From NCBI GenBank assembly GCA_019894975.1, contig JAGXNO010000028.1, positions 1 to 46,994 of the forward strand: a stretch of DNA of 46,994 nt, read 5' to 3'. Shown here in pieces: positions 13,981 through 46,994 of the stretch. Position numbers and translations under genes: made by a program. How positions within the stretch are numbered: position 1 is the first letter of the stretch; every line of letters starts with the position of its first letter. Origin of the DNA: Promethearchaeota archaeon (GTDB taxonomy: Archaea > Asgardarchaeota > Lokiarchaeia > Sigyniarchaeales > SOKP01). Under the pieces are notes generated by a model that ran no database searches, was not told the DNA's origin, and was given only the letters and a program-made list of their open reading frames with translations.

Positions 13981-14562
13981 ATGAATGACAAGAAAAAATC
14001 TGATGAAGAACTAGTGTTTCATGAACGACAGGAGATGATTTACAAGATAATTGTGATTGGGGACCCTGCAGTTGGCAAAACAAGCCTTTTAACTAATTTC
14101 TGTGGTGACAAATTCAAATATGAGTACGAGCCAACTGTTGGAGTAAATATAACAAAGCAGAAAATCACTGTTAAGAATGATATGGGGAAGGATACAGATA
14201 TTTATTTAATGATATGGGACATCGCAGGACAACCCCAATTCTATATGCTCCATCGCCCGTACTTTAATGGTGCAGACGGGATGATTTTAGTATATGATGT
14301 TACTCGATCAAGTTCTTTCTCAAACGTAAATAATTGGTATTCAACAGCAGTAAAATACGGTCTTTCAGGAGTTCCACGGGTTTTAATAGGTAATAAAATA
14401 GATTTGAAAGATGAGAAAAAAATTATCTTACCTATGGCAGAACACTTATCTCAGAAATTAAATGCCCCATTTTTTGAAACCTCAGCATTGACGGGTGAGA
14501 GTGTCGCTGAAATGTTCTTTAAAATAGGAGAACTTACACTTCTTTCAAAATTGCAAGAATAA
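13981..14562 (+). CDS. Rab-like small GTPase
   Basis: GDPAVGKTS, YEPTVG, IWDIAGQ, YFNGADG, GNKID, ETSAL; no C-terminal Cys. Confidence 0.93.
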   Translation: MNDKKKSDEELVFHERQEMIYKIIVIGDPAVGKTSLLTNFCGDKFKYEYEPTVGVNITKQKITVKNDMGKDTDIYLMIWDIAGQPQFYMLHRPYFNGADGMILVYDVTRSSSFSNVNNWYSTAVKYGLSGVPRVLIGNKIDLKDEKKIILPMAEHLSQKLNAPFFETSALTGESVAEMFFKIGELTLLSKLQE

Positions 14563-15307: not shown

Positions 15308-16198
15308 GTGATAAAGTTGATTCAGTACATAAACATTCTTACTAAGGACGGTAAATCGTTGTTATTCAGAAACTATGGCACTTCCGAAGTTGATAGAGAC
15401 TTATTGGCTGGATTCTTAAGCGCATTCTCAGGATTTATGAAGGAAATTAGCCAGAGTGACATTAAAAGTACACAGACAGAGGATTTCAAGTATTTCTATA
15501 CCATTATCGATACAATTATTATTGTCGTTTGTACAGATTTAATAGATGATGATTCTACTGTTAATTCAAAAATTCTAAGTATAAGAACAAGATTTATTGA
15601 GCAGTATGGGAAAATCCTTAAAGATGGAAGTTGGGCAGGAAATCGAACCATTTTTTATGATTTTGAAAAAGAATTGGATAATCTTATATTAGGAGCAATT
15701 AAGATTTCGATCCTTGGTTTTGGGGGCGTTGGGAAAACCACGTTAACACGACTAATTTGTGGACAAGATGTTGACCTTGAGTATGTACCTACAATTACAG
15801 CTGATATAGCTTCTTATGAAGGGGATGAGTTCGAAAGATCTATTACTCTTTGGGACTTTGCAGGGCAGGCTCAATTTAGGTCACTATGGAAAAGCCTATT
15901 GCAAGGCTCAGATATCTGCCTTTTAGTTACTGATTCAACATTTGAAAATATAAATGAATCTAAAGAAATTATACATGATATTTTAGATAAACATTTTCAA
16001 GAAAAACTCGTAATTGGTATTGCTAATAAACAAGATTTACCAAATCGGCTTACACCAAAGTTTTGTGAAAGGATTTTGGCTAGTGAAGAACGATTGATTA
16101 AAACCCATGGAATGAGCGCAATTAAACCAATGTATCGCGAGAAAATTTTGGCAATATTAAGAGAAGCCATAAAAGAAATTTCAAGGATAAGTGATTAA
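15308..16198 (+). CDS. Longin domain fused to an Arf/Rag-like small GTPase
   Basis: N-terminal INILTKDGKSLLFRNY...DLLAGFLSAF..F..E longin pattern; GFGGVGKTT, PTI, WDFAGQ.QFRSLW, NKQDL, SAI. Confidence 0.88.
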   Translation: MIKLIQYINILTKDGKSLLFRNYGTSEVDRDLLAGFLSAFSGFMKEISQSDIKSTQTEDFKYFYTIIDTIIIVVCTDLIDDDSTVNSKILSIRTRFIEQYGKILKDGSWAGNRTIFYDFEKELDNLILGAIKISILGFGGVGKTTLTRLICGQDVDLEYVPTITADIASYEGDEFERSITLWDFAGQAQFRSLWKSLLQGSDICLLVTDSTFENINESKEIIHDILDKHFQEKLVIGIANKQDLPNRLTPKFCERILASEERLIKTHGMSAIKPMYREKILAILREAIKEISRISD

Positions 16199-33496: not shown

Positions 33497-33991
33497 ATGA
33501 CAGAAATAAAACATGTTCTTTATATATGTGCGGGGAACACATGTCGAAGCCCTTTTGCTGAAGGCTTCTCAAATCTACTCAAAGCTTCGATATATAAGGA
33601 AGAACTTAAAGATGTGCAGTTCGATTCGGCAGGTATATATCACTATTATAAATCTGCTCAACCCGAAACTGTTAATTATTTAAAAACTAAAGGCATTGAT
33701 ATAAGTAATTTTAAAACTAAGAGAATTGATAATGACCTCTTAGAACAACATGATCTTATTTTAGGATTTGAACAAAAGCATCATATCAATAAACTAAAAA
33801 GAAAATTTAAAACAATAAAAAATCTTGATAAAAAGCTATTTTTATTGTTAGATTTTGCTGGAGAGAAAGAAAACTTAGAAATATTTGATCCATTTAAGCT
33901 TAAACAAGAAGAGTATAATTTAGTGCTTAAGAGAATTGAAGATGGCATAATTAAAGTTGTTAAGAAAATTATTGAAATTAACAAATCTTAA
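33497..33991 (+). CDS. Low-molecular-weight protein tyrosine phosphatase / ArsC family
   Basis: ICAGNTCRSP P-loop, SAG, DLIL, IFDPF. Confidence 0.9.
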   Translation: MTEIKHVLYICAGNTCRSPFAEGFSNLLKASIYKEELKDVQFDSAGIYHYYKSAQPETVNYLKTKGIDISNFKTKRIDNDLLEQHDLILGFEQKHHINKLKRKFKTIKNLDKKLFLLLDFAGEKENLEIFDPFKLKQEEYNLVLKRIEDGIIKVVKKIIEINKS

Positions 33992-34008
33992 TATTTTATT
34001 GATTTAAT

Positions 34009-34491
34009 ATGGATAAAATTAAACGAATACTCTTTGTATGTTTAGGAAATACTGCTAGATCTCCCCCAGCGGAATATTTAGCTCGATATTACGCAGAAAT
34101 TGATAATGTTGATCTTATTTTTAGTAGTGCTGGATTCATCAATGCATTTTCATACATGCAAAGAGAATCACAAGACTATTTGAATTCAAAAAAGATTAAT
34201 CATTCAGATTTTCAACCTCAATTAATCACTCGGTCTTTATTAAAAAGCCAAGATTTAATTCTAACTATGGAAAAATCCCACTCTATTGATATTTTAAAAA
34301 TTTATAACAACATTCCTAACATTGAAAAGAAAACTTATACTTTGAAAGAATTCAATGGAGAAACTCAAGATCTTGATATTATAGATCCATATTATACAAC
34401 ATCTGATATGTATCGAGAAGTTCTTAAAATAATTGATGATAATGTTATGAAGGCTGTGGGAAAAATCCAAAAGCTTAACTCACAATTGTAA
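34009..34491 (+). CDS. Second LMW-PTP family phosphatase
   Basis: VCLGNTARSP P-loop, SSAG, DLILTME, IIDPYY. Confidence 0.9.
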   Translation: MDKIKRILFVCLGNTARSPPAEYLARYYAEIDNVDLIFSSAGFINAFSYMQRESQDYLNSKKINHSDFQPQLITRSLLKSQDLILTMEKSHSIDILKIYNNIPNIEKKTYTLKEFNGETQDLDIIDPYYTTSDMYREVLKIIDDNVMKAVGKIQKLNSQL

Positions 34492-38448: not shown

Positions 38449-40209
38449 TTAATTACTCTTATCCAATGAATCTGCAATAATTTTTTCTAATTCTTCTTTT
38501 TTCTCAATAGATTTCTTTATTAACTCCTCTGATTCTATTACAGGCTCTACAGCTTTAGGTTTTGCTTTTTGTTGTAATGGAGCACTCCCTGATTTTCCTT
38601 CATAGGTTTTAATACTGTCAGATACTTCATGTCTATAATGATTCCTAAAAGAATTTTCGCGACTCACTATTACTACATTAGGTATGTTACTTCTTCTTAA
38701 GGATTTTCTAAATTTTATTACTTTCCTCACTGGTCTCGGATATTTTAATATTTTCTGATAAGCATATAAATATCCTCCTACGATAACAGTAACCAAACTT
38801 GCGATTACTAAAAGGGCTGTAAATATCCATGGTTCTGTGATGAATTCTGAAAAAGTTTCGGTATATGAAATAATTAAGTACACATTTGTGATGGAAACAG
38901 TTATATTATTTATCAGTAAAAATTCATCTGCTAGATACACCTGAATCGATAGTGTTACATTTTCATAAGGAAGTGTTATTCCTGATAACTCAAATCCATC
39001 TTCTTTGGCATCTTGAAAAGTTGTTGTAGCTGAACTCAATCTGATAGTTTCGGCATGTTGTCTATTATTGATAAGGATTCTAATTTCTGAGTTAGGGGAC
39101 AATGAAGTTGGCCAGAGTTGATCAATTTTGTATTCAAATCTAAGGTTAGCTTCGGTAACTCTTACACTAGTACCATTCATACTGTTTCCAATTTGATTCC
39201 AAGACACTAAAGTACCTTGGTCGACGATTTTTTCATAAGTGAATGTTAAATTGCAGGATTTGATGAGCAATGAATACCATACGTCTAATTCATACCCCGG
39301 ATAGTTATCTTCGCAATCTACGTCTATTCCAAGAGTTATTGTGAAATTATGATTATCATGCCTTAAAACCTGTGATAATGCAAATTTTAAAACATCGTCA
39401 TCTGCAGCAATCATATTTGTATCGTTGAGAAAATTACGTGTTGCATAACTGTATACTCTCCTCCCTGCATATCCTTCTCCTAAATCAACAGTTTTGAAAT
39501 ATGCAATCTCATAGGGTTCTAAATTGTTCAGATCTGAAATTTGAATGTAAAATCGGGTAAAATCAAATAGCGAAGCGTATCCTCCATCAGCAAAAGGAGG
39601 GTGATCATTTGGAGTTTCAAGATCAGTATCCCCACTACCATTAACAATAGCACTTATTGAAGCGGAAGTTATCTGGTAATCAGACATATCTTCCGAAAGT
39701 GATATGTTTCTTTTCCACATTACCCCTGCAAGATTTGCGGTTTGATCTCCTGAATTTGGAAAATCTCCCGTATCATCTTCATCATATACATGCGAAACAT
39801 TCAAACCGTACTGATTTATTTCATGAGTCAAGGGTAATGGGCGGATTGAGTGATTAAATTCACTCCAGTCTGCTGCTTGAGGGATTCCTGAGACTTCTGA
39901 AAATGTTTTTGTATCACCTATTATGTCATAGTTAGCTTGGTTAGAATATATAGCAGCATTTACATCAGTATCATCTCCATCAGTGCTAGAAAACCATGGA
40001 ATTCCCGCACCTTCAAATGTTGGATTATCAATCCAAGAATTATTTGGATGATCAATCACCTCTGAGGGTTGAAGGTTTTCTAAATAACTCAGTTCAAAAG
40101 TTTTACTATTACTTGTAGAATCTACCATAAGTCCTGTGAAGAGTGGTGCTGAAATAAAGAAAATGGTAAGAACTAAAAGAATATCTCGAAATTTTTTCTT
40201 AGAGCTCAT
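38449..40209 (-). CDS. Type I membrane cell-surface protein, paralogue C
   Basis: Signal peptide, acidic beta-rich ectodomain with many NxS/T, TM, KYPRPVRKVIKFRKSL tail; start overlaps the stop of paralogue B (TAATG). Confidence 0.85.
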   Translation of the reverse strand: MSSKKKFRDILLVLTIFFISAPLFTGLMVDSTSNSKTFELSYLENLQPSEVIDHPNNSWIDNPTFEGAGIPWFSSTDGDDTDVNAAIYSNQANYDIIGDTKTFSEVSGIPQAADWSEFNHSIRPLPLTHEINQYGLNVSHVYDEDDTGDFPNSGDQTANLAGVMWKRNISLSEDMSDYQITSASISAIVNGSGDTDLETPNDHPPFADGGYASLFDFTRFYIQISDLNNLEPYEIAYFKTVDLGEGYAGRRVYSYATRNFLNDTNMIAADDDVLKFALSQVLRHDNHNFTITLGIDVDCEDNYPGYELDVWYSLLIKSCNLTFTYEKIVDQGTLVSWNQIGNSMNGTSVRVTEANLRFEYKIDQLWPTSLSPNSEIRILINNRQHAETIRLSSATTTFQDAKEDGFELSGITLPYENVTLSIQVYLADEFLLINNITVSITNVYLIISYTETFSEFITEPWIFTALLVIASLVTVIVGGYLYAYQKILKYPRPVRKVIKFRKSLRRSNIPNVVIVSRENSFRNHYRHEVSDSIKTYEGKSGSAPLQQKAKPKAVEPVIESEELIKKSIEKKEELEKIIADSLDKSN

Positions 40210-41924
40210 TATTGTGTTTTACCTCCTTCTTGATTTGTTGTATTTCCTTTTATTTCTCCTGATCCTTTATCCGAAGGAGTCTTAGCAATACCTTGTTCTT
40301 TTCCCGGATCTACGCTCGGCTTTCCTCGAGTATATTTAGAGGAAGCGCTAAGTTCTTTTTTGTAACTTTTATTAAATGCCTTTTCTCTACTGGTAATATC
40401 TGTTGATGGAGCTGATTTTTTTTTCAATGTTCGTTTGAACTTTCGTACTTTTCGAACAGCATGAGGATATTTTAACACTTTTTGATAAGCAACAAGATAT
40501 CCACCTAAACACCCTGCAATAATACTTGCGACGATGAGTAATATTCTAAAAATTAGTGGTTCGGAAACTGGTTGGGGATCCGAAATTGTTTCTTTATAGG
40601 AAACTACAAGATAAACATTATCAATTGAAACTGTAATAGTTCTATTTAATCCAAATTCATCCCCTAATATGACCTGAATTGAGAAGTTTATATTCACATA
40701 GGGGGGAGTTATATCTAAAAGATCATACCCCTCTACCTTTGCCTCTTGAAATGAGGTTGAAGCTGAACCCAATTTAATCGTTTCTATGTGAGGGATGTTA
40801 TTAATTAGAATTCGTATTTCTGAGTTGGGAGATAATATATCTGGCCAGCTTTCACTGATTTTATACTCGAAATTAAGATTAGATTTAGTAATTTCAATAT
40901 TACTTCCATTTATTGCCTCTCCTATTTGATTCCAAGATAAATAAGTTAACTGATTCATTTTTTTTTCATACGTAAATGATAAATTAACTGATTTTATTAA
41001 TAGTGAATAAAATGTATCTCGATCAGCTTGATCATAATTATCCTCACAGTAAATATCGATACCAAGCGTGATTCCAAAATGATAAGGATCATCTTCAAGG
41101 GCCTTGGTCAAATAAAAAATAAGTGTCGATTGATCTATTGTTGCCATTAATGTGTCATATAAATAACTAATTATTCCCGTAGCTTGTCGAGTTTGGTTTC
41201 CTTCTCCTAAATCTACAGTTTGGAAATAGGCGACCTCATAAAGATTTACATAATCTAAGTTTGAGAATTTAATATAAAACCTAGCGTAATCGTAATATGT
41301 TGCAAAATATCCCGCACCATCGTAACTCAAATCATCGTTAGGAGTTTCTACATTTGTATCGGCACTTCCATTAACCACAGCTGATAATGAAACTGAGGTT
41401 ATGATGAAATCTTCCATACTGACCGGCATTGTTATATTTCTTCTCCAGTGAACACTTGGTCTATTCCGAGATTGATCCGTATTTTCTTGAAATTCATGAG
41501 AAGCTTCACAGCCATCAACATTAATTTCATGAGTCCCATCAGGCAAAATAAAATAGGTGTTATTAAATTCTGACCAATCTGAATCACTAGGTGTGCCTGA
41601 TACATTAGAAAATTGTCCAGTACTCCCTAAGATATCAAAGTTAACTTGACCTGTGCTAGTTGATGGATTAATATCTGTAGGATCTCCTTTGATCTCTGAA
41701 AACCAAGTAGGTTGAATTGGATCAGCAAAAGTAGGATTTTCAAGCCATTGAATATTTGAGCGTGTAACTATTCCCGCAGTATTTAAACCTGCTCGTGATT
41801 CAAATTCATATTCATTTATTTTTGTATTTACATTAAATGAAGAGAAAATTGCGGTTAAACCCAACAAAACTATAAGTCCTAAAAAAATAAAACTTTTAAA
41901 ATTCCTACCACTCTTAGTAAGCAA
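40209..41924 (-). CDS. Type I membrane cell-surface protein, paralogue B
   Basis: Signal peptide, WLENPTF, ETPND, YCEDN, SWNQ, TM, KYPHAVRKVRKFKRTL. Confidence 0.85.
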   Translation of the reverse strand: MLTKSGRNFKSFIFLGLIVLLGLTAIFSSFNVNTKINEYEFESRAGLNTAGIVTRSNIQWLENPTFADPIQPTWFSEIKGDPTDINPSTSTGQVNFDILGSTGQFSNVSGTPSDSDWSEFNNTYFILPDGTHEINVDGCEASHEFQENTDQSRNRPSVHWRRNITMPVSMEDFIITSVSLSAVVNGSADTNVETPNDDLSYDGAGYFATYYDYARFYIKFSNLDYVNLYEVAYFQTVDLGEGNQTRQATGIISYLYDTLMATIDQSTLIFYLTKALEDDPYHFGITLGIDIYCEDNYDQADRDTFYSLLIKSVNLSFTYEKKMNQLTYLSWNQIGEAINGSNIEITKSNLNFEYKISESWPDILSPNSEIRILINNIPHIETIKLGSASTSFQEAKVEGYDLLDITPPYVNINFSIQVILGDEFGLNRTITVSIDNVYLVVSYKETISDPQPVSEPLIFRILLIVASIIAGCLGGYLVAYQKVLKYPHAVRKVRKFKRTLKKKSAPSTDITSREKAFNKSYKKELSASSKYTRGKPSVDPGKEQGIAKTPSDKGSGEIKGNTTNQEGGKTQ

Positions 41925-42098
41925 ATTTTTACACCTAATAATAGATTGAGTATGATTAATTTCTAAGCTAAAAAACCTTAAAAAAGTAACTTATTTGAAA
42001 GTTATATTCACCTTACATAAAGATATAATGATTAATAAGAATTGAGCCATGTTTACCTTAAAACTTTAATAAAAAGAAAGTATTAAAAAAAGAGGCAT

Positions 42099-43907
42099 TT
42101 ATCCTTTCTTATCTGCTTCTTTTACCAATTTATCGAGTTCTGATTTCTTTTCTAAAGATTTATCGATTAATTCATCAGTGCTTATATTTTCTTCTAAAGT
42201 ACTCTTCGGTTGTTTTGTAGATTCCCCATTTTCTAGACCTGTAGATGCTTTTGACTTGCTAGGTTTAACTAATACGGATTTAGGTGCAACCCCTAAATCT
42301 TTGTTATACGCTTTCCTAAATGCAACTTCTGAAGGCATTATTACTACATTCGGTGCATTACTTCTATTAAGAGTCCTCTTGAATTTTCTCACTTTTCTAA
42401 CTGGTTTTGGATATTTTAAAAACCTCTGATAAGCTATAAAATATCCCCCTAAACAAACTGTAGCGAGACTTACAAAAATTAATAATGCAGCAAATATCCA
42501 TGGTTCAGGATCTGAGGATGGCAAAACTCCGATCCATGATTCTATGTAAGAAATGCTTAAATAAACATCCGTTATTGATATAGTAATATTATTATCTAAC
42601 CCGAAATCTTCAGCTAAATACACTTGTATTGATAGAGTAAATTCTTCATATGGTAATATTTTCGAAACAATATCAAAACTACCATCCTCAGGAGCATCTT
42701 GCCACCCAGACGAATTATCATAATCTATTAAACTTATAGTTTGCTCAAATTTCCTATCATTAATGTATATTCTGATTTGGGAATTTTGGGAGGATTCGGT
42801 CCAATTTTGATCGATTTTATATTTAAAATTTAGACTAGCATTAGTAATTTGAATAGTTGAATTACCTACTGTACGATTAATTGCATTCAAATCTTGATTC
42901 CAAGATAAAGCTGTAAACTGATTAATTTTTTTTACATAGGAAAAAGTCAAATTCAAAGTTTTAAAGCGTACATCGTCAAAGTGATCTCTATCAAGACTAG
43001 AATTATTATCTTCGCAATACATATATATTCCTAAAACAATTGTAAAATTATTATGCCCTGGGTCAACTGCTAAAACGTTATTTATAGCATCAATTATAGC
43101 CTGTTTTCCATAAGCTCCTATTAATCCTTCTACATCATAAAACAGAAGACCCTCATTACCTAATAAACGTGTTTGATTAAACGCAATCCTGTAAGTATTC
43201 AATTCATCAACATCTAATGTAGTAATTTCAACATAAAATTGAATATAATCATATTTTTCGTATTGGTTTATCGACACCGTACCTGGATCCCACCTAGCAG
43301 TGGTATCACCTGGTGTATCAATATTTCGATCAACACTTGCGTTTATTATGGCATCGAAACTTGCATCAGTAATAATGTAATCTGTCATGTCAACAGGTAA
43401 ACTCACATTTGTTCTCCAATGCATACGAGGAGTATTTTTAGGTTGTCCACCAGTTTCTCCTTCCCACCACCAATGACTACACCAAACCCCATCATCATCA
43501 ATCCCATAATATGGAACAGATGCACGTTGGGGAACAACCACTAATTCAGATTTATTGAAAGCTTCCCAATTTGATTGTGTGGCGGCATTAAGGAGAACTT
43601 GTTCTTCATATGATTCTCCTATTATTAATGCGTTTGCTTGATTTGGACTAGTAGATGAAATTGCGTCAGAAACATCTCCTTCAATGGTTGGATACCATGG
43701 ATCAACTGGTTCTTGAAAATCAGAATTAATAATCCATGCCGCATCGTCTACTGTCACGTTTCCAGAAGTATAAAGATCTTGGAAAAATCTAGTATCCAAA
43801 GAGGTTTTACTAGTCTGATTTGTTCCAATAAAAAGATTTAAAGAAGAAATAATAAGAATAACGAATAAAAAGGAAAAAACTATCTTGAGATTACTTTTAG
43901 ATTTCAT
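42099..43907 (-). CDS. Type I membrane cell-surface protein, paralogue A
   Basis: Signal peptide, WIINSDF, DTPGD, YCEDN, SWNQ, TM, KYPKPVRKVRKFKRTL; GGTGA RBS. Confidence 0.85.
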   Translation of the reverse strand: MKSKSNLKIVFSFLFVILIISSLNLFIGTNQTSKTSLDTRFFQDLYTSGNVTVDDAAWIINSDFQEPVDPWYPTIEGDVSDAISSTSPNQANALIIGESYEEQVLLNAATQSNWEAFNKSELVVVPQRASVPYYGIDDDGVWCSHWWWEGETGGQPKNTPRMHWRTNVSLPVDMTDYIITDASFDAIINASVDRNIDTPGDTTARWDPGTVSINQYEKYDYIQFYVEITTLDVDELNTYRIAFNQTRLLGNEGLLFYDVEGLIGAYGKQAIIDAINNVLAVDPGHNNFTIVLGIYMYCEDNNSSLDRDHFDDVRFKTLNLTFSYVKKINQFTALSWNQDLNAINRTVGNSTIQITNASLNFKYKIDQNWTESSQNSQIRIYINDRKFEQTISLIDYDNSSGWQDAPEDGSFDIVSKILPYEEFTLSIQVYLAEDFGLDNNITISITDVYLSISYIESWIGVLPSSDPEPWIFAALLIFVSLATVCLGGYFIAYQRFLKYPKPVRKVRKFKRTLNRSNAPNVVIMPSEVAFRKAYNKDLGVAPKSVLVKPSKSKASTGLENGESTKQPKSTLEENISTDELIDKSLEKKSELDKLVKEADKKG

Positions 43908-44064
43908 TTAAATCATATCACCATTTATTTGGAATTTCTAACTATTTAAGTTATATTAATTTGAATAAACTTTAATTAAATAATAATAATAAATAATACT
44001 TAAGACATAATAATATTTATTTTATCTTAAAAAACTTATTTAACGAAATTCGAGGTATTGAAAT

Positions 44065-45318
44065 TTGATCCAAGGTATTTTGACATTTCAGTTTAAGATT
44101 AATCAGAAAGAGACAGGAGAAATAGAACCAGAATTCGCTCCAATCCAATTAATATTTCGAGAGGAACGATTTGATGAAGATAATTTTTCTGAATTACTTA
44201 ATGATAATGATCTATTTGCTATCTTTTACCAACACACTACTGGTTTGTTTGGAGTAAAATACAGCTATAGCAATTTTTATGCAGGAAGACTAAAAGAAAC
44301 ACCTTTTCAAGTAATATCCTATTTTAAACAAGTAGCTGATGGCACTCAATATTTAGCAATGTCTATTTTTGAATTAGATGATGAAATTGAAATTTTTGAA
44401 GATTTAATAAAAGACATGGGAAATCGATTAGATACAATCTTTGATAAATTAACAAGAGCCAAAAGTTCGAAACAAGTCTCTTTAATAGAAAATATAAACA
44501 TTAGGTTGAAAAATGAAATAAAATTTACAATATTTCAAGTGGATAGATTATCTAATTTAGATAAACTTCAAAAAGTGGCTTTAATCTACAATAGCGAAGA
44601 AAGAATGAAAATCTTAGAAATCTTGCGTGAACGTCCAATTGCGAAAAAAGAATTAAAAAGCATTATTGAAAAAATGTCTGCAACTGTCAACATAGACATA
44701 CTTCTTCAGCCTTTTCTGGAATTGAATTTAATTAGACGTGATTGGATAAAAGGAGAAAAAGACAAGAAAACTGGTGAAATTCAGCATCAAGGAGAATATT
44801 TGTTTTTAGTGAAGGATATTCTCATAGCCCGGATCCCAAATGAGAATTTATTGAATCATTTCAAGGAGACGAAAAATGAATTACTCCCATTCTATAGACA
44901 AAAAGTAGTAGATTATTTCTCAAATTATGATCCTTACACGCAATCTACAGAAGAAACCAAAAAAATAGCCTCAATCCTGTTAAGCCCTGATGCCTACGAT
45001 TTTTTCGTCCTGATGAGACACAACCATTACCCACTCGACAAAATCCCTAAAATCTTCTCGGAATTTGCTGTCACTGAAATACTATTAGATGATTTAAAGG
45101 ATATAAACATTATAACGGAAATAACAGACGAGAACGAGCGCAAGTGGATTTGTTTGCTTACAGAGATTAAACCTTTAATTATCTTCCCGGAGTATTTGCT
45201 ACCTAAAATTAGAGAAGCATATAAGAATGAAGATGATGATGGTAGGATCACTTTTGAAATTGCGAAAAAGGCTCTTAGCTTGTTAGAAATTACCTATCCC
45301 GAGAAAGTGAAATTTTAG
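44065..45318 (+). CDS. Putative longin/uDENN-like domain plus two winged-helix domains
   Basis: GAGGT RBS before TTG; b-b-a-b-b-b-a-a pattern in the first ~160 aa; two segments of the ERMKILEILRERP...LLQPFLELNLIRR type. Confidence 0.65.
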   Translation: MIQGILTFQFKINQKETGEIEPEFAPIQLIFREERFDEDNFSELLNDNDLFAIFYQHTTGLFGVKYSYSNFYAGRLKETPFQVISYFKQVADGTQYLAMSIFELDDEIEIFEDLIKDMGNRLDTIFDKLTRAKSSKQVSLIENINIRLKNEIKFTIFQVDRLSNLDKLQKVALIYNSEERMKILEILRERPIAKKELKSIIEKMSATVNIDILLQPFLELNLIRRDWIKGEKDKKTGEIQHQGEYLFLVKDILIARIPNENLLNHFKETKNELLPFYRQKVVDYFSNYDPYTQSTEETKKIASILLSPDAYDFFVLMRHNHYPLDKIPKIFSEFAVTEILLDDLKDINIITEITDENERKWICLLTEIKPLIIFPEYLLPKIREAYKNEDDDGRITFEIAKKALSLLEITYPEKVKF

Positions 45319-45348
45319 TATTTAATAAAAACGAGATGATATTACAAA

Positions 45349-46994
45349 ATGTATTTATTTAAAGATAAAGATGTAATTGAGGTACCAATTACCTGTAAAT
45401 TCTGTTTAAAGGAAATTAACTTTCCAATATCAAAAAAAGAATACCAAGATGTAAAGAAATTTCCATTAAAAAGAGAAAATATTCACGGAGATCCCGAACA
45501 CAAATTAACAGTTTTTATAAATATGAGTCTAGAGGTTGAAAATTTCGAAATACAAGACCTAACTGAAAAAGAGGAAGAAGTTGCCTATTCTGAAGAATTA
45601 ATTAAACAAGTATTAAGTGATATTGATTTAACAGATGAAGAAATTGAGTTGTATTTTCGATCAACCGGACGTGAAACTGTATCGCTTGGTGAGATCTCGA
45701 TTTTAATTGGCAAATCAAAGGAAGTCTGTAAGAAAATTGTTGATAAATTTATTGAAAAAGGATTGTTTAAAGAAATTATTGGAGCTACTCCTCATTATGC
45801 TGCGTTACCACCATATGCCGCTTTAGTAGCTCAATTGAAAAACTTTTATACCTATATTTCTGATATCAAATCGAAAATTCCAATCCAATTAGAGAGATCA
45901 TTTGCTCAACTTGAAACGCAAGCCAAGGGTATGGAAACTTTAAAAGACTCCAGTGAAGCGATGTTAGAATTAAAAGAAAAGATGATCGATCAAATCCAGG
46001 CTCAAAAAAAAGAGTTTAATCAAACAATAACAGCAATAGATCAGATTAAAAATATCACAAAAGATATTTCAGGTTTAGGAGATGTTACAAAAAATATTTC
46101 AGAGGATCAGATAGGAAGCTTAACTTCACAATTTGACACCCTTAATCAGAAAACTTCACAAATTATAAAGAACCAAGTCGATGGGCTAAGAACTCAATTA
46201 GGGGACGTCAAGCAAATTGTAACTGATAATCTACAAAAATTAAGGTTAGGTGTCATCCAACAAGCTGTAGGGGATATAATCGAAAAAGTTATTAATTCCA
46301 GATTAAAAGATATTACTGATAATCTTAATGTACAATTAAGCGTAAGTCAAACTGTGTTTGCTGATGAATTAAAAAAGGCGACACAAGGTATAGATTCTGA
46401 ATTTGTTTCTAAATTGAGAAGCTCTATTGAAGATGCTGTTAAAAATGTTGAAGGAATTGGTATAAAATCAGATGATGAGAAAGAGAGAGCATTTTCGGAT
46501 ATTATGGATAATTTTAATAAAGCTGCAAAGTTGGCTGAAGCAAAAATTGATGGACTTTCAGGAGATATTTTTCAATCATTTGGAAATATACGGGAGATCT
46601 TTTCTAAAGGAATTGTAGACACTTTAAATAATACTTTAAACGATATCTTGAATCGTTTGGAGCTTAGTGAAAAAACTACAAACCAATTCTGGGAACAATC
46701 AAAAAAAGCGAAGGGGGCAATTACCATGAAAGATATTTGGTTTGTTCGTTCGCCAGAAGCCGCTAAAGCTCATATTAATGATGAAATCTCAAAAGCAAAA
46801 ATGAGGGTACTAATTGTTGCTCCTGATCTTCTAGATATTGAAATAGATGCTATCAAAGCACGCCCTTCACGAATTAACTTTAGAATTTCTACTCATATTG
46901 ATCCAAATATTAAAGCGCATGAAGCTGTATTACAAGAGTTAGATCAAATGGATAACGTTGATTATAGAAATAGGACTCTACAGAACTTATGGGG
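45349..46994 (+). CDS. TrmB-like protein with N-terminal Zn-binding motif and long helical insertion, 3'-truncated (not in ORF track)
   Basis: Open from ATG 45349 to the window end (>548 aa): CKFC...HGDPEH; LTDEEIELY...SLGEIS...KGLFKEI.G.TPHYAALPP wHTH; ~300 aa amphipathic helices; IWFVRS....AHI...ISKAKMRVLIVAP effector-domain start. Confidence 0.82.
   Translation, partial: MYLFKDKDVIEVPITCKFCLKEINFPISKKEYQDVKKFPLKRENIHGDPEHKLTVFINMSLEVENFEIQDLTEKEEEVAYSEELIKQVLSDIDLTDEEIELYFRSTGRETVSLGEISILIGKSKEVCKKIVDKFIEKGLFKEIIGATPHYAALPPYAALVAQLKNFYTYISDIKSKIPIQLERSFAQLETQAKGMETLKDSSEAMLELKEKMIDQIQAQKKEFNQTITAIDQIKNITKDISGLGDVTKNISEDQIGSLTSQFDTLNQKTSQIIKNQVDGLRTQLGDVKQIVTDNLQKLRLGVIQQAVGDIIEKVINSRLKDITDNLNVQLSVSQTVFADELKKATQGIDSEFVSKLRSSIEDAVKNVEGIGIKSDDEKERAFSDIMDNFNKAAKLAEAKIDGLSGDIFQSFGNIREIFSKGIVDTLNNTLNDILNRLELSEKTTNQFWEQSKKAKGAITMKDIWFVRSPEAAKAHINDEISKAKMRVLIVAPDLLDIEIDAIKARPSRINFRISTHIDPNIKAHEAVLQELDQMDNVDYRNRTLQNLW

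Follow-up and report, generated by a model that had tools for sequence, protein, structure and literature searches.

A Divergent Locus of Lokiarchaeia Linking Variable Surface Glycoproteins with a Longin/Winged-Helix Protein and a TrmB-Like Protein

The Locus and Its Organization

The stretch of DNA analysed here, referred to as the window, is the whole of contig JAGXNO010000028.1 (C96 in our numbering; 46,994 nucleotides (nt)) of the Promethearchaeota archaeon assembly GCA_019894975.1, which consists of 175 contigs and is 95% complete; close homologues of the proteins discussed are labelled Promethearchaeota or Lokiarchaeia, and one orthologue of the protein called P5 below is Lokiarch_07340. 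The last part of the window contains a cassette of five genes arranged on the two sides of one spacer: on the minus strand, three genes for surface glycoproteins, namely S3 (602 amino acids (aa); 42099-43907), which adjoins the spacer, S2 (571 aa; 40209-41924) and S1 (586 aa; 38449-40209), the third gene of the array; on the plus strand, a gene for a protein composed of a longin domain, a helical hairpin and two winged helices (P4, 417 aa; 44065-45318), followed after a gap of 30 nt by the gene for a TrmB-like protein (P5; 45349-46992). None of the five proteins rises above any Pfam or NCBIfam threshold. The original prediction, made from the letters of the sequence alone, had described three surface-protein genes and a pair of genes 30 nt apart, reading away from a 157-nt spacer, and all of these open reading frames (ORFs) are indeed found where it had placed them. 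The stop codon of S2 overlaps the start codon of S1 by one nucleotide (TAATG); P4 starts with a TTG codon, with GAGGT 9 nt upstream of it, and its orthologues are of equal length.

The frame of P5 is still open at the end of the contig, the window holding the first 548 of about 734 residues; these comprise a C-x2-C / H-x3-H knuckle, a TrmB-type winged helix-turn-helix (wHTH), a heptad coiled coil, apolipoprotein-like helices and the start of a C-terminal globular domain. The missing 155 C-terminal residues were found on another contig of the assembly, C103, at its very end (G000:C103:42556-43023(-)), where the encoded piece is 95% identical to residues 580-734 of a 734-aa orthologue; the two contigs are therefore neighbours, separated by about 30 codons, and P5 is cut by the assembly only, being intact in the organism.

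The divergent spacer (43908-44064, 157 nt) has a GC content of 14.6%, compared with 32% for the window, and an equally low value is reached in just 0.4% of the 157-nt intervals. The alignment of 17 spacers revealed, within 60 nt upstream of P4, a block common to most loci of genera g1 and g14 (43971-44024, plus strand), consisting of TTTAATTAAA, then CTTAAG, and then an A/T-rich TATA-like stretch; this block is probably the core promoter and, judging from its letters, may correspond to a transcription factor B recognition element (BRE) and a TATA box. The part of the spacer proximal to the surface genes, 112-466 nt long in 16 loci of family f1 and 1287 nt long in genome G183, is not alignable. 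A role of TTTAATTAAA and of CTTAAG as palindromic operators for P5 was also considered and is not claimed, such palindromes being frequent in DNA of 15% GC and the block being possibly just the BRE/TATA region.

Information on transcription is provided by contigs 90-99% like the window, from four metatranscriptome runs that belong to one study. The gap between P4 and P5 is spanned by a single contig (about 95% identical) in three of these runs, the longest one reaching from position 44026, inside the spacer, to 540 nt past the end of the window; the S2/S1 junction is likewise spanned in three runs out of four, and, among the contigs listed, none joins P4 or P5 to S3. The little or no cover of S3 and of part of the spacer at a likeness of at least 90% is uninformative on expression, given that S3 evolves fast and that the contigs are those of a relative. 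Altogether, the contigs fit two divergent units, with P4 and P5 transcribed together.

The Surface Proteins and Their Cytoplasmic Tail

S1, S2 and S3 are paralogues (40-47% identity, with 40% between S1 and S3), and both hydropathy and sequon counts identify them as single-pass, type I-like surface glycoproteins. A hydrophobic segment near the N-terminus of each is followed by an ectodomain of about 430 aa and, according to the hydropathy scan, by one transmembrane (TM) segment at about residues 461-488 (in S1 the two hydrophobic segments are residues 10-28 and 461-479); N-x-S/T sequons number 9-16 outside versus 0-2 inside (11 and 0 in S1, 16 in the ectodomain of S3). A cytoplasmic tail of about 90-110 aa follows, whose first 50 residues carry a net charge of +11 to +14. 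S3 and its ectodomain belong to no Pfam or NCBIfam family, and their neighbours in the protein Atlas are unnamed Promethearchaeota clusters only.

The best-kept part of these proteins is the end of the TM segment together with the juxtamembrane motif ..AYQ(K/R)xLKYPxPVRKVRKF.., which lies in the TM-plus-tail stretch encoded on the minus strand at 42288-42521 in S3 (GGYFIAYQRFLKYPKPVRKVRKFKR), and in the equivalent stretches at 40344-40574 in S2 and 38620-38850 in S1. The consensus of the tail is the strongly basic Y-x(6-8)-P-x-x-[VI]-[RK]-[KE]-x-[RK], in which only the Tyr and the Pro are invariant over 25 diverse tails. When a hidden Markov model (HMM) of TM segment plus tail, built from seven tails, was searched against the 4557 ORFs of at least 80 aa of the genome, exactly seven of them matched, and a P4-family gene adjoins all seven. 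These are S1-S3, two proteins of about 1255 aa on contig C33 sharing the N-terminal domain of the S proteins, and two unrelated giants on contig C105 (1474 and 1283 aa), which carry the divergent form Y-R-x-[IV]-Q-Q-A-R-I-P-x-x-V-K-K-x-R-K of the motif. The number of S units per same-genus locus ranges from 1 to about 5; indeed, comparison of the sequences indicates that the ectodomains diversify quickly and that copy number shifts between species, while the tail is kept.

In three same-genus genomes two complete S units occur in one frame of 1812-1820 aa (L051:11083-16545, L052:3804-9263 and L058:10792-16230); each unit has its own signal, ectodomain, TM segment and tail, and the topology is consistent with a four-TM protein exposing two ectodomains. 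The Y-x-x-hydrophobic start of the tail was considered as an AP-type sorting signal, a function that is not claimed, the Tyr being located at the edge of the membrane. A tyrosine in this position is too near the bilayer for recognition of the AP2 type.

P4, a Longin/Winged-Helix Protein

The structural model of P4, obtained from an alignment of 65 family members, has a mean predicted local distance difference test (pLDDT) of 92.3 and a predicted template modelling score (pTM) of 0.82, and presents a longin core of topology beta-beta-alpha-beta-beta-beta-alpha (residues 1-134), a helical hairpin (108-163) and two winged helices (about 167-258 and 295-373). The assignment of P4 as a longin/winged-helix protein, already part of the original prediction, is thereby sustained, with the domain order of NPRL2 and NPRL3, in which a longin domain is followed by repeated wHTH (as laid out in the accessible text of PMC3747258). 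Both the topology of the core and the similarity to solved longins place the head of P4 within the longin fold; its structure matches (values in brackets) are FLCN (12.4), Lst4 (12.2), C9orf72-SMCR8 (12.0), a Lokiarchaeal longin (8yqg, 11.9), GATOR1 (11.6), VAMP7 (10.5), the SEA complex (10.2), TRAPP (10.2) and AP sigma (about 9). The arrangement of an N-terminal longin and repeated winged helices is thus shared by P4 with NPRL2/NPRL3, and the chains of these and of the related longin GTPase-activating complexes FLCN-FNIP and C9orf72-SMCR8 are the top structure matches of its head. On this model, P4 appears to be a soluble, mildly acidic, cytoplasmic protein with an FLCN/NPRL2-like longin head, whose charge (-14) is complementary to that of the S tail (+11 to +14).

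Three observations speak against a straightforward membership of P4 in the NPRL2/NPRL3 group. It has no Pfam NPR2/NPR3 match (a search of Pfam-A with hmmscan at E <= 1 returned only a weak match to the wHTH family HVO_A0261_N, and NCBIfam gave nothing), and among residues 1-165, in the longin head, no Arg column is conserved throughout the family, R75 being present in 24 and R161 in 27 of the 65 rows. In GATOR1 a catalytic arginine finger is located on the longin domain, along with a GP motif, according to the portion of PMC12290439 available. The near-invariant residues of the P4 family (Q169, L248, D251, R256, P258, Y288, L364, P375 and L407) all fall in the winged-helix half; conservation within the family is lowest in the longin head, distant paralogues matching over about 160-411 only, and in place of the Gly-containing loop of most paralogues the subgroup to which the P4 of the window belongs carries T-G-E. 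The family, confined to Asgard archaea, is a small one (141 representative clusters among 1.84 billion proteins), and a search of the protein Atlas with P4 returned unnamed Promethearchaeota clusters only; single-sequence searches of P4 and P5 against the sequences of the PDB gave nothing useful. NPRL2-like longin families are listed among the Asgard eukaryotic signature proteins, as far as the consulted parts of bioRxiv 10.1101/2020.10.19.343400 and PMC9834061 go.

P5, a TrmB-Like Module on a Long Helical Protein

In the alignment of 25 members of the P5 family, whose full-length orthologues have about 734 aa, a C-x2-C ... H-x3-H knuckle comes first and is followed by a winged helix, by a helical region that varies in length, by a conserved globular domain at about 455-600 and, after a Pro-rich linker, by a helical domain at the C-terminus; the zinc-knuckle motif is missing in the distant paralogues. 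The relationship with TrmB emerges from several comparisons. The Pfam model of TrmB (PF01978) recognizes the paralogue P5b with 34.7 bits against a cut-off of 25.6, matches 9 of the 25 family members (best E 1.4e-9) and covers 67 of its 68 positions on the orthologue P0312 (E 0.045). By hhalign, P5 and a set of 23 canonical TrmB proteins, mostly from this genus, are aligned with a probability of 95.5% and an E of 1.3e-8 over the wHTH and the following helix, the alignment spanning TrmB positions 1-116, including the amphipathic helix after the wHTH; with a single TrmB sequence the probability is 70%. The matches of the P5 profile in the PDB are mostly helical or compositional (apolipoproteins, ZorA, spike stalks), with TrmB (3qph) at an E of 0.014. 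As in TrmB regulators, where a wHTH is followed by an amphipathic dimerisation helix (from the part of PMC4158304 that was accessible), P5 thus combines a TrmB-type wHTH with such a helix.

The similarity does not extend to the effector (sugar)-binding domain of TrmB, which is not detectable in P5: PF11495 has no P5 match in 41 genomes and finds, in this genome, only the canonical 266-aa TrmB, and the comparison by hhalign of P5 residues 440-620 with the effector part of TrmB gives an E of 0.21. These comparisons indicate that P5 is TrmB-like in its N-terminal module only. The TrmB-like rod proposed in the original prediction is therefore retained as far as the wHTH and the long helical rod after it are concerned; the idea that P5 binds a metabolite finds no basis in these searches, and nutrient sensing is not supported by any of the observations. 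P5 further differs from TrmB in its additional parts, which are a zinc knuckle at the N-terminus, a stretch of about 290 residues made up of coiled coil and apolipoprotein-like helices, and a helical domain at the C-terminus, and in the position of its gene, which lies beside a surface array and not beside a sugar transporter.

The helical region changes character along its length. Residues 160-300 have a hydrophobic period of 3.54 residues, just above the 95% shuffle level, and residues 300-450 (window positions about 46246-46698) have a period of 3.70 residues (11/3), with a power of 152 against a 95% shuffle level of 80; the apolipoprotein model PF01442 matches 13 of the 25 family members at E <= 0.1 (best 1.4e-11), a match which may be compositional, and profile matches to apolipoprotein A-IV reach an E of 1e-6. 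From these periodicities the region would consist of a coiled coil, followed by amphipathic helices able to lie on a membrane. It is here that a purely structural or biogenetic explanation has to be considered, in which P4 and P5, with no signalling, form a sub-membrane scaffold that places, clusters, sorts or stabilises the S proteins, for instance in protrusions, the helices of P5 resting on the inner leaflet and its winged helix serving protein contacts. Along with the apolipoprotein matches and the 3.7-residue period, this explanation is favoured by the Lys that appears in P5 at the position of the recognition-helix Tyr of TrmB (a position taken from PMC4158304 and unmapped), and by the description, in the text of PMC9834061 to which we had access, of Lokiarchaea as devoid of an ordered surface layer and rich in complex surface proteins by cryo-tomography. 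On the other hand, the apolipoprotein matches may be compositional, the score of the orthologue P0322 against the apolipoprotein model is 17 bits, compared with a curated cut-off of 90, and a dedicated TrmB-type wHTH together with a zinc knuckle would be unusual in a pure scaffold; we regard this explanation as rather improbable.

Conservation of the Coupling between the Surface Genes and P4-P5

The divergent layout, with the S genes and P4-P5 on the two sides of one spacer, is kept in all 11 same-genus loci having enough flank, where the identity amounts to 82-90% for P4 and 68-88% for P5, and to 33-63% for the best S match. The genes around the cassette encode a GNAT acetyltransferase, an enoyl-CoA hydratase and a 3-hydroxyacyl-CoA dehydrogenase beyond the S array, and a metallo-beta-lactamase-fold hydrolase, an FAD oxidoreductase and a URO-D-like protein beyond P5; the same metabolic flank genes are present in 9 of the 11 loci (not in G017 and G024; the locus of G002 is cut at a contig end). 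A further set of 18 loci from other genera and families was chosen by a match to P5. A P4-family gene is beside P5, or one gene off, in 16 of these, and a tail-bearing ORF is found within the stretch in 9, most of the loci devoid of such an ORF being cut by contig ends. The divergent form recurs in seven loci of genera g12, g13, g14, g16 and g17 of the same family, five loci of families f2 and f3 have the co-directional order P4, P5, S, and two loci of f4 have P4 only. Conservation of the divergent arrangement, which the original prediction had proposed as its own check, therefore holds in all 11 same-genus loci, and in other families the genes are rearranged yet linked.

The coupling is also seen among paralogues. 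A second cassette of the same genome (C33:60121-70798, locus L062) has the order S-S-P4b-P5b on one strand with gaps of 12-34 nt, and encodes two surface proteins of about 1255 aa, in which the S N-terminal domain is followed by repeats, a P4b of 375 aa and a P5b of 650 aa; on C105 (C105:23664-35766, locus L063) each of the giants of 1474 and 1283 aa has a P4-family gene of 370 aa directly after it. In the proteins P0188 and P0216 ectodomain, TM segment, tail motif and a full P4-family module are found in a single chain, and genome G240 has two more such fusions, as complete ORFs of 2663 and 2648 aa. Locus L064 of this genome (G240:C9:428000-447999) contains tandem giant genes, with five matches in the genome, each ending with a TM segment, the tail motif and a full P4-family module, and a gene encoding a roadblock-like domain plus a Ras GTPase adjoins this array.

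The phyletic distribution of the two elements was surveyed in 301 genomes of the phylum, taken in one draw; as these genomes are related, the survey provides a description and not a formal test, and the tail model, which is short, loses sensitivity in distant classes. The P4 superfamily is present in 220 genomes and the tail in 176: both are found in 175 genomes, the tail alone in 1, P4 alone in 45 and neither in 80, so that P4 accompanies the tail in 175 of the 176 tail-positive genomes and is absent from 80 of the 125 tail-negative ones. The co-occurrence, proposed as a further check in the original prediction, is thus observed, and families without the tail are mostly without P4, and vice versa (f18, 0/11 for both; f20, 0/5 for both; f9, P4 in 3/28 and tail in 1/28; f26, P4 in 1/21 and tail in 2/21).

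That the two sides of the spacer are unrelated neighbours, merely sharing it, could be imagined as long as adjacency was the only link, and the unrelated metabolic nature of the flanking genes would agree with it; this possibility, already contradicted by an arrangement that is kept, or rearranged yet linked, across two families, by the paralogous cassette, by the 175/176 co-occurrence and by the fusions of paralogues, is now very improbable. By the same four lines of sequence evidence, namely synteny, the second cassette, co-occurrence and paralogue fusions, it is strongly supported that the S genes and P4-P5 constitute a real conserved unit.

GTPases in the Vicinity of P4-Family Genes

The original prediction had compared the locus with the GATOR/Rag system and P4 with an adaptor regulating GTPases. 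Accordingly, an alternative explanation is that P4 is a longin platform with GTPase-activating or guanine nucleotide exchange activity for a roadblock-fused, Arf/Ras-like GTPase encoded elsewhere, with the S tail as its anchor and P5 as an accessory; a candidate partner is the 296-aa protein encoded at 15308-16198 of the window, 28 kb from the cassette, in which a domain of about 125 aa is fused before an Arf/Roc-like GTPase. Besides the NPRL2/3-like domain order of P4, it is the neighbourhood of P4-family genes in other places that speaks for this explanation. Of 18 loci from other classes, 8 have a homologue of the 296-aa GTPase as the immediate neighbour of the P4-family gene, and 3 more have one at a distance of up to about 2 kb. 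The two pairs of surface and P4-family genes on C105 are separated by a gene, on the opposite strand, for an N-terminally extended Arf-family GTPase (344 aa), 274 nt from one of the pairs, and on C33 a GTPase is found 1.2 kb from a remnant of a P4-family gene. Moreover, a protein of 545-559 aa with a Ras-family GTPase domain, and with a weak Roadblock match in one case, is encoded between P4 and P5 in three loci (genera g14 and g17), on the strand opposite to theirs (L073:8873-10510, L074:4638-6275 and L080:10271-11950).

These observations are counterbalanced by the surroundings of the cassette itself. The genome contains 56 small-GTPase loci in 3.9 Mb, the distance to the nearest of them being 27.9 kb for P4 and 42.6 kb for P4b; no GTPase is found in any of the 11 same-genus loci, of about 20 kb each. 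The lack of a family-wide longin Arg and of an NPR2/NPR3 match, and the poor conservation of the longin head within the family, also stand against GTPase control, which we therefore deem unlikely for this cassette. What survives of the earlier comparison concerns the superfamily, whose members occur beside roadblock- or N-domain-fused Arf/Ras-like GTPases: judged by its gene neighbourhoods, the P4 family as a whole has a connection with GTPases, by which the cassette of the window, with none within 27 kb, is not made a GATOR/Rag circuit. The GTPases are found beside P4-family genes lacking P5, from which P5 and the roadblock-fused GTPase look like alternative partners of the adaptor; the same pairing of P4 paralogues with GTPases argues for a switch rather than for the static scaffold considered above.

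A Proposed Receptor-Tail Adaptor Module

The explanation that we consider somewhat the better supported by the evidence as a whole, and to which slightly more than an even chance is given, is that the cassette is a receptor-tail adaptor module having P5 as its output, that is, the Lokiarchaeial, three-part form of an Asgard-wide module made of a surface-protein tail and a longin/winged-helix adaptor. From the anatomy of the locus, the folds, the genomic coupling and the paralogue fusions we infer that P4 binds the tail and P5, and that a signal proceeds from the surface inward. In the proposed mechanism, P4 would dock on the basic S tail beneath the membrane, and P5, a product of the same transcription unit, would be a dimerising protein of the TrmB type, equipped with zinc knuckle, coiled coil and amphipathic helices, taking the place held beside P4 paralogues by the roadblock-fused small GTPase. 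Encounters of the variable ectodomains with the outside (partner cells, surfaces or ligands) would alter the state or the clustering of the tail; P4 would read this change and hold or free P5, which might then act either on DNA, via its TrmB-type helix, or on the membrane cortex.

Several observations weigh against this adaptor module. Outside Lokiarchaeia, a large single-pass neighbour is present in only 5 of 18 loci picked by a match to the P4 family, three of them from family f7 (genomes of 1.3-1.4 Mb) and two from f11, all with tails bearing recognizable variants of the motif. The reported fusions of tail and P4 belong to a paralogous subfamily, and no fused form turned up when longer relatives were sought for the subgroup of the window's P4, which is weak evidence; the fused paralogues, moreover, still retain the tail motif in spite of carrying the P4 module in the same chain, and the motif may hence serve topology, lipid contact or a third partner, or act in trans. 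The difference between the mean pairwise identity of the tail core (56%) and of the ectodomain (45%) in the S family is only moderate. As to P5, the protein of the window is itself below the Pfam cut-off for TrmB, and the Lys mentioned above, which appears in the hhalign comparison with the TrmB of this genome, occupies the position likened to the DNA-contacting Tyr50 of Pyrococcus TrmB (an equivalence drawn from the accessible part of PMC4158304 and unmapped), so that DNA binding by P5 is only possible. Finally, the RNA contigs are those of a close relative and of one study, and RNA libraries can hold DNA.

A wider proposal, advanced tentatively and less probable than the module itself, is that the pair formed by tail and P4 would represent an archaeal precursor of the eukaryotic platforms in which longin and roadblock proteins are anchored to a membrane (Ragulator-Rag-GATOR1, FLCN and C9orf72-SMCR8), with a surface receptor as the anchor. 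Asgard archaea would accordingly possess a family of outside-in receptors, whose variable ectodomain would sense partner cells or ligands and whose conserved tail would recruit an NPRL2-like adaptor, with interchangeable outputs (a roadblock-fused Arf/Ras-like GTPase or, as here, a membrane-associable, TrmB-like DNA-binding protein) and with diversifying tandem arrays serving cell-cell recognition of syntrophic partners.

Relationships with Known Systems and Implications

The comparison with characterized systems shows both likenesses and differences. In contrast to GATOR1, the cassette has no Rag-type GTPase nearby and no DEPDC5 partner was noted, no search having been aimed at DEPDC5; the conserved partner of P4 is a surface-protein tail, to which a TrmB-like protein is added here. 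Ragulator-Rag, in which membrane-anchored roadblock proteins dock GTPases, is resembled by those loci of the P4 superfamily where the genes for a membrane anchor, for a longin/roadblock protein and for a small GTPase fused to roadblock occur together, with the differences that a surface glycoprotein would provide the anchor through its tail, in place of the lipidated LAMTOR1, and that the cassette contains no GTPase; the likeness is one of design and does not imply descent. A third comparison is offered by the clustered protocadherins, which have variable ectodomains and a constant cytoplasmic part, the latter encoded by shared exons. The S proteins resemble them in their tandem genes, in their diversifying ectodomains and single conserved cytoplasmic segment, and in the intracellular partner that they are proposed to share; unlike in protocadherins, to which they have no relation of sequence or fold, the constancy of the S tail derives from purifying selection on each gene and not from shared exons.

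In the literature on Asgard surface proteins, longin and TrmB that was searched (most subscription journals and supplements lying outside the search), no paper was found linking the tails of Asgard surface proteins to longin/winged-helix or TrmB-like proteins; the parts of the cassette are of known kinds, and it is their assembly that the searched literature does not contain. Asgard archaea have hundreds of eukaryote-like longin, roadblock and small-GTPase genes, almost none with a known partner or job, and the cassette supplies one longin family with partners that can be tested, namely the peptide motif in the tail of abundant and fast-evolving surface proteins, the co-transcribed TrmB-like protein and, in paralogous cassettes, the roadblock-fused GTPases. 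It may be the means by which relatives of eukaryotes pass events at the cell surface inward. If the contacts hold, they would provide an experimental handle on the coupling of surface contact to the cell interior in protrusion-forming cells that have no surface layer, and would show whether the docking of longin/GTPase machinery on a membrane anchor predates eukaryotes. Such tests are feasible, since all the parts are small, soluble or of the size of a peptide and Lokiarchaeia are available in culture.

Other Genes of the Window

Two further features of the window may be recorded. A Ras-family GTPase of 193 aa is encoded at 13981-14562, and two tandem genes for low-molecular-weight phosphotyrosine phosphatases, of 164 and 160 aa, occupy positions 33497-34491.

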